DNA of 63,008 nt, filler included, from Stramenopiles sp. TOSAG23-6 (Eukaryota): the NCBI GenBank assembly GCA_900128565.1. It is 19 parts of 19 records of this genome, joined end to end, with 100 filler letters (N's around TTAATTAATTAA, not from the genome) between each part and the next. Parts side by side here need not be neighbours in the genome. Positions count along the whole stretch, not along the records: positions 1 to 3,240 come from LT637597.1; 18 more parts are not named here. The stretch is one strand, 5' to 3'. Numbering within the stretch: position 1 is the first letter of the stretch; each line of letters opens with the position of its first letter. This document shows positions 1 through 2,190 of the stretch, one piece after another. The notes under the pieces were generated by a model that did not search any database, was not told where the DNA came from, and saw only the letters and a program-made list of their open reading frames with translations. The translations under genes were made by a program, and so were the position numbers.

Positions 1-2190
1 CACCTGCATTTAGATTTGTTAATGTACTTGTTTTTATCGCATCTAGATCAAGTGATACATTTTCGTTTTCTTCAATTTCTTCCTGAATATTTTCATCTTC
101 AGGAATTTCATTTACTATTATAGGCTCACGCCAGTGACAACCAGGTTCCGCAAGACATCCACTTTGTCCGATTTTGGTTAAGTTCTCGCAACTATTTCGG
201 TCTTTACAAGATAGCTCAGTTTCATTCCAAGCACATCCTTCGAGAGATTCACAAATCATTTTATGCATAGCTGGGATCTCTGAAATAGCTTTATTCCATT
301 GTGATACAATTTTCACACGATTTGAGCAGATCGCTGTGCAATTATCTATATTGATTTCACATAAAGGTCCTGAATAATCATCATTACACATGCATTTAAA
401 TGACGCTTTTTTGTCGATACACTTTCCGCCGTGTTGACAAGGATTTGAGAGACACTCATGTATTGAATAAAAATAATATCAAATTCGAAATTCGTTAGGT
501 ACAAAATTTTGTATGAAAAAAAAATTCATGATGAAAACATACATCTATATTATGTTCACAAAATTGTCCATCAAATCCATTCCTACATTCACAAGTGTAC
601 TCTGCAATACCATCCACACACTTGGCCTTATTTTTACATTCATGTTCTAAACATTCATCGATTTCTGTACCACACAAAAGTCCTTTCCATATATATTGTG
701 AAAAATATTTTTTTTTGTAAAATTCATTAGGTACAAAATTTCGTATGAAAAAAAAAATAATAATTTGAAAATCCTTATGAAAATCCTTATGAAAACATAT
801 CCTTTTGAACATTCACATTTAAAATTTTCCTTTGGCAAGTCTATGCATTTGCTATTATTTTTACACGGAGCGCTCACACAATCATCAATATCGATTTCAC
901 AAAATTCACCTGTAAATCCTTTCGTGCACTCACATGAATATTTTGCAACTTCATCGATACATTTTGATCCATTTTCACATTTATTGTTTCCACAGTCTTG
1001 TATTGTGAAAAAATATTAAAAAAAAAAATGTTAGGTACAAAATTTCTTATGAAAAAAAATGAAATTTATCATGAAAACGTATATCAAGATCATGGTCACA
1101 TAGTATACCGGAAAACCCAGTTTTGCATTCACAGTGAAATCTACCTCCCATTAAATTCTCACAAGAAGCTCCATTGTTGCAAGGTGAGCTTTCGCATTCA
1201 TCAATATCGACATCGCAAGTTTCACCAGTCCAACCTCTAGAACATGGATATTGTAAAAAATATTTTTTTTTGATTTAAAAAACATCGTTAGATATAAAAT
1301 TTTCTATGAAAAAAAAATTTGAAATTTATGATGAAAACATATGTACACCTAAATCCTATAGGTAAGTCTGTACAAATACTATTATTTTGACAAGGTTTGG
1401 ATTCGCAGTCATAGATATTGTGAAAAAATATTTTTTTTTGTAAAATTCATTAGGTACCAAATTTCGTATGAAAAAAATAAATTCAAATTAATGATGAAAA
1501 CGTATCTTTAATATCGTTTTCGCAAAAGATACCTCTTGTACCAGGATGACATTTACAATAGTAATCTCCATTTTTCTTGGCAATACATATTCCTTCATTT
1601 TTGCACGGAGATGAAGAACATGGACCCATAGCTTTTGCACAGTTTTTGCCTTCCCAACCAGGAGTACAACGACACATATAGTCTTTATTTTCATTTTTAC
1701 ACACGCCTTGCTTACACGGATTTGGTGTACAAAGGTCTATATTTTCCTGTTTTGGAGGTTTCCTTTTTTCTATTTGTGTTTTCAATTCGGTTTCTGTGCA
1801 GTTTTCACCAGTAAATCCACTGATGCAGTCACACTTATACAAGCTACCTTGTTTTGTACATCTACCCCCATTCTTACAAGGTGACGTTGCACATGGATCT
1901 ATTATTTTATCCAAGCGCGGATCTTCCCAAGAGGTATTTCCAGTTTTACTGTTGTAATAGTATGTATTTCCAGTACTATCATCTATATGCGTTGTCCAGG
2001 TATCTTCTTCAACTATTTTAGTTGTTTTCATTGACGCCGGTTTTTCCCATGTTGTTTCTTTTGTTTCCGTATTGTAATAATACTTGCGGCCTGAGCCTGT
2101 ATCTGTGAATTCTTGCCAATCAGAAGTAATTAAACTCAAATTATTACTAAATGCAATGAGTAAGAACACAAATGTTGTATCAAATCTCAT
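1..2190 (-). CDS. Secreted protein with 2 WW domains and many EGF-like (Notch-type, Ca-binding) repeats, 3'-partial. Exons 2190-1506, 1412-1343, 1245-1083, 997-801, 690-543, 457-<1
   Basis: Hydrophobic N-terminus; WW motifs (WQEFTD..GRKYYYN..TTWEKP; WTTHID..TYYYN..TSWEDP); C-x-x-x-P-C-x-N/G-x-x-C repeats. Removing five family introns restores frame and EGF spacing (CDHDLDDC, CSKGWKG, CEHNIDEC). Confidence 0.85.
691..800 (-). other. Non-canonical intron, AT...AT (ATATGT donor)
   Basis: Splicing AAA GG|...CACAATATAT|A TGG gives the invariant EGF Gly in C-x-x-G-W-x-G; shifting the boundaries 1 or 2 nt upstream gives Val or Ile instead. Confidence 0.8.
998..1082 (-). other. Non-canonical intron, AT...AA
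   Basis: CTT GAT|ATACGT...GTACCTAAC...CACAATACAA|GAC TGT restores CDHDLDDC. Confidence 0.75.

Follow-up and report, generated by a model that had tools for sequence, protein, structure and literature searches.

We analysed a stretch of 63,008 nucleotides (nt) of the genome of Stramenopiles sp. TOSAG23-6 (assembly GCA_900128565.1), composed of 19 parts from 19 records and hereafter called the window, for the introns of a gene with WW domains and EGF repeats and for the repeated intron family to which these introns belong. The WW/EGF gene occupies positions 2–2190 on the minus strand, with its ATG at 2190–2188, and runs off the window edge. Its six exons (1506–2190, 1343–1412, 1083–1245, 801–997, 543–690, and 2–457, all minus) are separated by five introns, A to E. 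Four consecutive introns with AT donors and four different 3' ends had been proposed here in a sequence-only reading of the window, and all four read exactly as claimed on the minus strand: intron A (1505–1413, 93 nt, ATACGT...CACAATATCT, ending ATATCT), intron B (1342–1246, 97 nt, ATATGT...TACAATATCC, ending ATATCC), intron C (1082–998, 85 nt, ATACGT...CACAATACAA, ending ATACAA), and intron D (800–691, 110 nt, ATATGT...CACAATATAT, ending ATATAT). The fifth, intron E (542–458, minus, 85 nt, GTATGT...TTCAATACAT, ending ATACAT), was absent from that reading; it belongs to the same subfamily and has the same internal sequence as A–D, but carries a GT donor, and an AT..AC reading of it is equally possible. 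A branch-site-like core, GTACCTAA, lies at 1450–1457 in intron A, with equivalents at 1031–1038 (C), 727–734 (D), and 495–502 (E), all on the minus strand, and occurs as the variant ATATCTAAC in intron B.

Excision of all five introns leaves a remainder of 0 and no stop codon between the ATG at 2190 and the edge of the window, so that the exon lengths fit the frame as had been claimed and the product is 573 amino acids long. Exon 1 codes for a signal-like N-terminus, two WW domains, and three EGF repeats; the predicted product as a whole is secreted-looking, with two WW domains and nine EGF repeats, and its exon sequence matches a diatom WW protein and animal EGF proteins. Each exon taken singly matches Pfam WW or EGF. 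With a hidden Markov model (HMM) of the EGF domain that we built from 44 EGF units of six homologues, nine full-length matches were found in the product, corresponding to nine complete six-cysteine units with all six exons intact. Because the 22-residue exon 2 (1343–1412) matches only positions 1–22 of the 32 of the EGF profile and exon 3 opens with the tail of a domain, intron B splits an EGF domain, which it interrupts between C4 and C5 (product C-T-C). Removal of intron D gives SKG|WKGLLC and brings back the pattern C-x-x-G-[FYW]-x-G-x-x-C, and the products at introns C and E are DLD|DC and NID|EC, respectively.

The deposited model of this gene, P0001 (495 amino acids, 97% identical to exon 1), uses GT-AG junctions only and omits exon 2 and one whole EGF unit. 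If it were correct, larger introns would swallow these pieces and the AT-donor introns would be illusory. The model is in frame and, since the skipped pieces have the size of whole repeats, it still yields seven EGF matches; its GT-AG alternative for intron C (GTTTTC...ACAAG) is likewise in frame, with one extra residue. The "introns" of P0001 nevertheless contain open, cysteine-perfect EGF coding sequence, including exon 2 with its own Pfam EGF match, its domains number seven versus nine, and its sequence score on the EGF HMM is 212.9 versus 276.2 for the product with five introns removed. GT-AG splicing is, moreover, impossible at the homology-fixed GcvP and S9 peptidase junctions of the same family described below. 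The GT-AG reading of P0001 was rejected on the lost EGF coding, the fewer domains, and the lower score, and we regard it as very improbable.

Architecture and termini of the intron family

Forty-six complete copies of the family align end to end within the 63 kb of the window, where they are spread over more than 15 genes at about one per kb and are accompanied by further partial copies; one transposon-like family thereby supplies nearly all introns of the window. Forty-three of these copies were found by motif scans and three were located through their 3' strings, while copies interrupted by N runs, donors that do not fit NNAYGT[TG]T, and weak 3' matches lie outside the set. Counts below refer to these 46 copies unless a smaller number is given. 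The common plan consists of GTAYGTTTT (continued by ATTTTTT or CATCATGAATTT), a T-run, (C)GTACGAAATTTTGTACCTAAC, a T- or A-run, and a 3' block ATATTTTTC(C/A)AAATAY followed by two further nucleotides. The donor motif AYGTTTTCAT occurs 13 times, compared with 1.47 occurrences expected from shuffles, and the branch-site pattern GT[AT]C[CT]TAA has 63 matches on both strands of the window, mostly in intron-like context.

At the 5' end, the first dinucleotide is GT in 38 introns, AT in six, and GA in two, and positions +3 to +6 are A, Y, G, and T in all 46. The 3' dinucleotide is AT in 35 introns, TT in four, AG in three, and AA, CC, CT, and AC in one each, which makes GT-AT the prevailing pair (31/46) and GT-AG a rare one (3/46). 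Position −3 is Y in 43 introns, −2 is A in 40, and −1 is T in 40, with a final T or C in 42. The flanking exons are also biased, with Y at −3 in 25, A at −2 in 38, and T at −1 in 39 exon ends, and G at +1 of the following exon in 25. A terminal AG is thus lacking in 43 of the 46 introns, including 35 of the 38 with a GT donor. Variable 3' ends are, on this count, not special to the AT-donor introns. A relaxed constraint on the first and last intron bases had been proposed for the WW/EGF gene; pairing as G-G or A-C is indeed not respected there, but the same holds throughout the family and is specific neither to AT donors nor to this gene.

A CTRAY motif, which marks the putative branch point, lies upstream of the 3' end in 45 of 46 introns. 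It has the core (T)ACCTAAC, and its branch A lies 32–71 nt (median 42) from the 3' end, with a single outlier at 152 nt; a T-run is conserved at −16 to −12, ahead of the 3' block. Because the distance from branch site to 3' end varies and that from the 3' block is constant, any ruler would start from the 3' block. Sixteen of 45 introns pass over an AG between branch site and 3' end, and where an AG follows downstream within 60 nt (42 introns), the first one is in frame in only 14, which is the chance level. The family thus resembles canonical U2 introns in its GT donor (38/46), AYGT at +3 to +6, and CTRAY motif (45/46), and differs from them in the scarcity of AG ends (3/46).

U12-type introns have the 5' splice site consensus /RTATCCTT and a branch site TCCTTAAC about 10–20 nt from the 3' end, without a pyrimidine tract. 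The introns of the window depart from this 5' consensus, branch consensus, and branch-to-3' distance: +5 and +6 are GT rather than CC in 46 of 46 copies, the branch site is placed at the longer distances given above, a U-run precedes the 3' block, and nearly all introns of the window are of one type with no second class visible. The earlier statement that the AT-donor introns are U2-like at +3 to +6 and not U12 AT-AC introns was thereby borne out. U12-type AT-AC-like introns with transformed signals, as in Physarum, would share with the family A or G at +1 followed by TAY, several 3' dinucleotides, a possible AT-AC reading (21/46), and a CCTAAC branch site somewhat like TCCTTAAC, and the available account of Physarum U12 introns reports short inverted termini (PMC11282704). 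Both the 5' motif and the branch distance led us to reject this reading, and we consider it the least probable of the alternatives.

No consensus pairs were obtained with RNAalifold from 22 introns. In a hand-drawn terminal helix of 4 bp, the +1/−3 pair is GC in 14 introns, AU in three, GU in two, and another combination in three, and 14 of 500 shuffles scored as high; since the three AU pairs all derive from the related introns A, B, and D, they amount to at most one covariation event. A structured-intron reading as in euglenids was rejected in view of the pairless RNAalifold result and the weak covariation. An Rfam scan of the window gave no matches and no small nuclear RNA (snRNA) genes, and a transfer RNA scan was also empty.

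Orientation relative to the open frame could be compared for 44 strong matches to the 3' motif, of which 33 lie on the strand of the frame, five on the opposite strand, and six are ambiguous. This sense-strand bias (33 vs 5) fits removal from RNA rather than from DNA. TA-bounded internal eliminated sequences of ciliates are characterized by inverted termini, a 2-bp flanking repeat, and precise restoration of the frame, a description that would also suit the elements of the window. A decaying pseudogene or an assembly artefact would be further possibilities, given the poor assembly, N linkers inside introns, and one scrambled kinase gene. Against these three explanations as a group stand the strand bias, the invariant 5' splice-site and branch-site motifs, the standard genetic code and long open reading frames of the window, the six intact exons and nine six-cysteine units of the WW/EGF gene, and a single motif common to eight AT donors, which is unlike random base-call errors. 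Together, they appear highly unlikely.

Several peculiarities of individual family members were observed. Directly upstream of the branch site, the core TTTCGTACGAAA forms a perfect 12-nt palindrome (e.g., 14545–14556, plus; 24880–24900, minus), which is disrupted to TTTCATACGAAA in the subfamily of the WW/EGF gene. Some longer introns have two to three tandem branch-site modules (TTTTCRTACGAAATTTTGTACCTAAC; 40514–40682, 52066–52241, 52340–52508, and 49900–50040, plus; 60893–61054, minus) and look like nested or internally duplicated elements. Other family donors are GAATGT (twice), GTTTGT, and GTACAT (twice), at 6888 (plus), 62597 (minus), ~7880 (plus), and ~24560 and ~39470 (minus). Telomere-like AACCCTAACCCTAA is located in or beside family introns at ~50455–50475 (plus) and ~23542–23556 (minus), in one case immediately after a GTACGT donor.

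Splice junctions and the origin of the 3' end

The boundary rule tested here extends an element from the first base of RTAYGT to 2 nt past AATAY. It preserves the frame in 26 of 33 elements (chance 1/3, P ~1e-7), and in 25 of the 29 elements that are flanked on both sides by 30 or more open codons (P ~6e-9). Two introns in ion-channel-like genes (37710–37850 and 23851–23982, both minus) are out of frame and need a 3' cut 1 nt earlier or another donor, for which an upstream ATATGT donor with an ...AATAC end is an alternative at 37710–37850; they represent either true variation in site choice or an indel error. Protein searches with exons of the window gave no close relative or transcript-derived protein usable for junction testing. 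Two conserved genes supply exact junctions by homology.

The intron of the glycine dehydrogenase gene GcvP (36219–36329, plus, 111 nt, GTACGT...CACATCATTT / CATCATTT) separates exons that end in GGPHAGFL and begin with ATSEKY, and in eight of eight homologues the two alignments abut with neither gap nor overlap. Shifts with equal product (TT..AT, TG..TT, TA..TG) exist for this intron, and no GT-AG reading is possible. The top named matches of the GcvP exon are to a brown alga, oomycetes, and a diatom at 52–61% identity, besides many bacteria. The second gene, an acylaminoacyl-peptidase-like S9 gene (3440–5968, minus) with exon matches to diatoms at ~25%, contains a non-AG intron (3618–3743, minus, 126 nt, GTATGT...CACAATACAT, GT..AT) at the junction GFAVLR|INYRGS and one of the three GT-AG introns of the family (3839–3932, minus, GTACGT...CTCAATATAG) at PPLI|LYPHGGPH. 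Spliced by the boundary rule, the S9 product is free of gaps at both junctions when compared with nine homologues. Given the scarcity of AG ends and the AGs passed over or out of frame noted above, AG is evidently not the 3' splice signal in this family.

The S9 junction PPLI|LYPHGGPH also fixes the 5' cut at the G of GTACGT, with I or V in nine of nine homologues. This bears on the possibility that the entire family is cut 2 nt upstream of the positions used here, so that typical introns would be AT-AC (ATGTATGT...AAAATAC) and would obey the A-C rule, and introns A–D would become AG..AT, AC..AT, AT..AC, and GG..AT, similar to the AG/AT and AG/AC classes of Fritillaria. Twenty-one of the 46 introns are readable as AT-AC with the same product, and the last conserved block would end in YAY, as in the available account of F. 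borealis (PMC13326754). Cutting 2 nt upstream would, however, place K at the S9 junction, change SKGW to SKIW at intron D and DLDDC to DLEDC at intron C, and displace the invariant GTAYGT to +3 to +8. We consider this arrangement improbable.

The last two exon nucleotides equal the last two intron nucleotides in 32 of 46 introns (AT in 29, TT in three). Of the four exons with a terminal TT, three are followed by an intron with the same TT end, which only one further intron has (Fisher P = 0.001). A match of AT with AT alone could result from the consensus or from an inverted repeat (ATGTAT...ATACAT), whereas a locus-specific TT match is the signature of a target-site duplication; with TT/TT in 3/4, this locus-specific signal is small. 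The termini read as putative inverted repeats, GTAT(G)TTTT / AAAATAC, or ATGTAT / ATACAT if the flanking AT is included, which are short (6–9 nt) and AT-rich. The window contains no transposase. A 2-bp target-site duplication by an introner resembling a miniature inverted-repeat transposable element (MITE) would fit the variable 3' dinucleotide.

In the mechanism that we propose, each element would bring its own 5' splice site (GTAYGTTTT), a strong branch site (GTACCTAAC), and the 3' block ATATTTTTC(C/A)AAATAY. The element proper would extend from +1 to −3 (GTAT...ATAC), and the second copy of the 2-bp duplication would be spliced out together with it. The 3' cut would fall two bases past the 3' block, whatever their identity; these bases would be the target copy and usually AT. 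A typical intron would then be at|GTATGT...ATAC AT|G, readable as GT-AT or as AT-AC with the same mRNA. A at +1 could be tolerated because such a system uses no terminal 3' G and would have no G1-G(−1) requirement. In its most general form, which we put forward tentatively and regard as possible rather than probable, the proposal would be that the spliceosome sets the second cut by position, at a fixed two bases past the U-run and C(C/A)AAAUAY and ignoring the dinucleotide, that one MITE that duplicates 2 bp gave rise to nearly the whole intron complement, that G1-to-A donors work, that GT-AG models are wrong genome-wide, and that such a system is undescribed.

The AT donors and the boundaries of introns A–D

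Eight AT donors are present in the window, and all retain AYGT or AAGT at +3 to +6. In addition to the four of the WW/EGF gene, these are the donors at 3439, 12817, 33418, and 37171 that had been listed before. Two belong to complete and frame-consistent introns, at 33418–33552 (plus, 135 nt, ATACGT...CACAATACTT) and 37054–37171 (minus, 118 nt, ATACGT...CCAAAATAAAT), and two are incomplete. The first of these, ATACGTTTTCAT (3428–3439, minus), directly follows the S9 peptidase sequence GGSHGGFI, and its 3' end is lost in an N run. The second, ATAAGT in ATAAGTTTTCAAT (12817–12979, plus), follows the kinase motif LDYLHYQ on a contig with the 3' end ...ACAATACAT, which by frame belongs to another intron of the same kinase; the assembly is probably chimeric here.

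With six AT donors among the 46 introns, four among the five introns of the WW/EGF gene have a hypergeometric P of 4.4e-4 if the gene is taken as named in advance. The sequence-only reading had explained this clustering by local copying of a subfamily with a RTAYGTTTTCAT donor and a CACAATAY acceptor, and had suggested a phylogeny of intron copies as a check. In a FastTree phylogeny of the 46 introns, the neighbours A, B, and D do group, but with the intron at 33418 of another gene, with which they have CCTAATGAATTTT and an A-run before ATATTTTT in common; intron C and the GT-donor intron E group with the GT-donor introns at 9478 and 21966. Members of the subfamily occur in many genes and on many contigs of the window, and copying was to this extent not local. 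From the grouping, the A at +1 looks like a separate change in C and like a shared inheritance in A, B, and D, which, as judged from this tree, probably took it from a common source copy. The AT donors look like G1-to-A variants of the family.

On the combined evidence of architecture, frame, and junctions, the four AT-donor interruptions of the WW/EGF gene are probably U2-like spliceosomal introns of an abundant MITE-like introner family. Several observations weigh against this reading. Removal of the elements, and its attribution to the spliceosome, is deduced from sequence; the assembly is fragmentary and was chimeric at least once at these repeats; and seven of 33 elements break the frame rule, some of which are mistaken choices of donor or acceptor, while others may be assembly errors or different sites. 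The intron tree is without support values and derives from short, AT-rich sequences, and the excess of the CAC-type 3' block in AT-donor introns (five of the six complete ones; 5/24 vs 1/22) is not significant (P = 0.11). At the boundaries given above, introns A–D are without the exon-end/intron-end repeat (ag/CT, ac/CC, at/AA, gg/AT), and A and B are without the near-invariant A at −2. The product of intron A, CENDIKDDC, exceeds by one residue the C-x-x-D-I-D-E-C spacing seen in the remaining EGF linkers. The exons after A, B, and D begin with ATG, and cuts moved by 2 nt on both sides restore at|...AT|G with the same mRNA. Finally, of 397 in-frame boundary variants scored with the EGF HMM, only intron length was fixed for B and D, because variants of the same length cannot be told apart, which leaves their exact site unfixed; for intron A, versions of 93 and 96 nt scored equally well.

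Three of the four introns can in fact slide by 1–2 nt with unchanged mRNA. Readings with equal product are AT..CT, TA..TA, and AC..AT for intron A, CA..TC, AT..CC, TA..CA, and AT..AT for intron B, and AT..AT, TA..TA, and AT..AT for intron D, while intron C (AT..AA) has no such shift and is fixed once its product is accepted. The four different ends thus read as stated, but part of their diversity is boundary ambiguity. Within the same family and with the same mRNA, introns A, B, and D could be cut 2 nt downstream on both sides, as AT|ACGTTTT...ATCTAT|G, AT|ATGTTTT...ATCCAT|G, and AT|ATGTTTT...ATATAT|G. They would then start with AC, AT, and AT and all end in AT, after loss of the initial GT and extension of the 3' end by 2 nt, with the usual AT duplication flanking them. 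The products are identical after this shift, which restores the family consensus of exon-end AT, intron-end YAT, and following G, and AT directly follows the 3' boundary in all three of these related introns. The shift would, however, move the invariant +5 G and +6 T to +3 and +4, abolish the match to GTAYGT, and place the 3' cut 2 nt beyond the site homologous to that of the other CACAATAY+2 members; in intron C the same shift would turn DLDDC into DLDIC. Since it destroys the match to the invariant positions +3 to +6, we consider the downstream cut unlikely. The interpretation in the sequence-only reading is thus partly supported. We take a family-wide non-AG, target-derived 3' end as the main finding, with the AT donors as a tolerated variant within the family.

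The kinase gene with the incomplete AT donor has its exons out of order (12330–13152, plus): subdomain I (GELGAGAF...ITGEK, to 12436) is followed by V–VIa (IFMVLEYMPNGE...LDYLHYQ, to 12816) and then by II–IV (YALKVINRR, from 12980). The end of the subdomain I exon joins the exon at 12980 in frame (K-Y-A-L-K), so that the contig looks chimeric across near-identical introns, while genuine scrambling of the kinase exons may be an alternative. The donor at 12436–12445 (plus), GTATCTTTAA, has C at the otherwise invariant +5 G and is the nearest to the U12 consensus among the donors seen. The parts of the window are joined by N44-TTAATTAATTAA-N44 spacers (e.g., 3241–3340, 6640–6700, 13251–13350, 36525–36624, and many others). 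Introns of the repeated family are the place of most breaks, as though the assembly gave way at them, and isolated single N bases occur within some genes. Among the other genes, a type I polyketide-synthase-like open frame of 1102 codons (53146–56454, minus) contains many single Ns, and an atlas search with an orphan protein of 818 amino acids gave no usable match.

Relation to known introns and significance

The closest precedents are the non-canonical introns of Fritillaria, the nearest, and of Amoebophrya; the comparisons here and below extend as far as the available text of the cited accounts. In Fritillaria borealis and relatives, 95% of introns escape GT/AG, 3' ends are mainly AT and AC, and a YAY triplet closes the intron and is often found before it as well; an origin from MITEs was proposed, in which the target repeat forms the 3' splice site (Soo et al. 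2026, PMC13326754; PMC11282704). The family described here likewise comprises mostly non-GT/AG introns with frequent 3' AT, target-site repeats and putative terminal inverted repeats, a 3' site supplied by the repeat, and a U2-type system as the presumed machinery, and it ends in YAY (of 46 introns, the last three bases are Y in 43, A in 40, and T or C in 42), a triplet that often stands before the 5' site too (exon −3 Y in 25, −2 A in 38, −1 T in 39). Unlike the AG-type 5' ends (AG/AC, AG/AT) of Fritillaria, the 5' end is GTAYGT in 38 of 46 introns, and in place of a TAC duplication there are 2 bp, usually AT. It is, in addition, a single family conserved over ~100 nt including the branch site, it makes up nearly all introns, and its host is a stramenopile-leaning protist and not a tunicate. 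Amoebophrya introns are described as mostly non-canonical and many-copy, with terminal inverted repeats and target-site duplications of variable length (3–5 nt); U1 snRNA is reportedly missing, and neither end of the intron is constant (PMC11282704), whereas the 5' site here is a textbook match to U1/U6.

Introners are known from Micromonas, Aureococcus, Chrysochromulina, dinoflagellates, and others, where they create GY-AG introns (Gozashti et al. 2022, PMC9860276; PMC11282704). Introners with one splice site of their own and a second recruited from the duplication are reported as widespread, with the Chrysochromulina type carrying the 5' site (PMC9860276). The elements of the window resemble them as near-identical short sense copies in unrelated genes with target-site duplications and/or putative terminal inverted repeats and unchanged mRNA length. 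They differ in having a co-opted 3' end that is non-AG and changes from target to target (AT, TT, and others), implying that position determines the 3' cut. The nonconventional introns of euglenids also have non-canonical ends and junction repeats, as well as inverted termini, for which the family here has short candidates; they have no conserved 5' or branch site and form a terminal helix (PMC11282704), unlike the family here, in which both sites are conserved and no consensus structure was found. An incomplete search of the literature yielded neither an account of the family nor any mention of GT-AT introners or the motif strings, so that an earlier description is possible.

For the study of this genome, the consequences are practical. 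Gene prediction restricted to GT-AG junctions mis-models genes here, as P0001 does by leaving out two EGF repeats, and other models of the genome are likely wrong in the same way; repeated introns moreover break or scramble the assembly. The AT donors offer a natural test of the pairing rule, with A at +1 paired with a final U, C, or A. Canonical 5' and branch sites in combination with a 3' end that alone is freed would isolate the choice of the second-step site and the need for an interaction between first and last base. If transcripts confirm the junctions, this would be a further, independent genome with a non-AG 3' signal, placed elsewhere in the eukaryote tree than Fritillaria and Amoebophrya.

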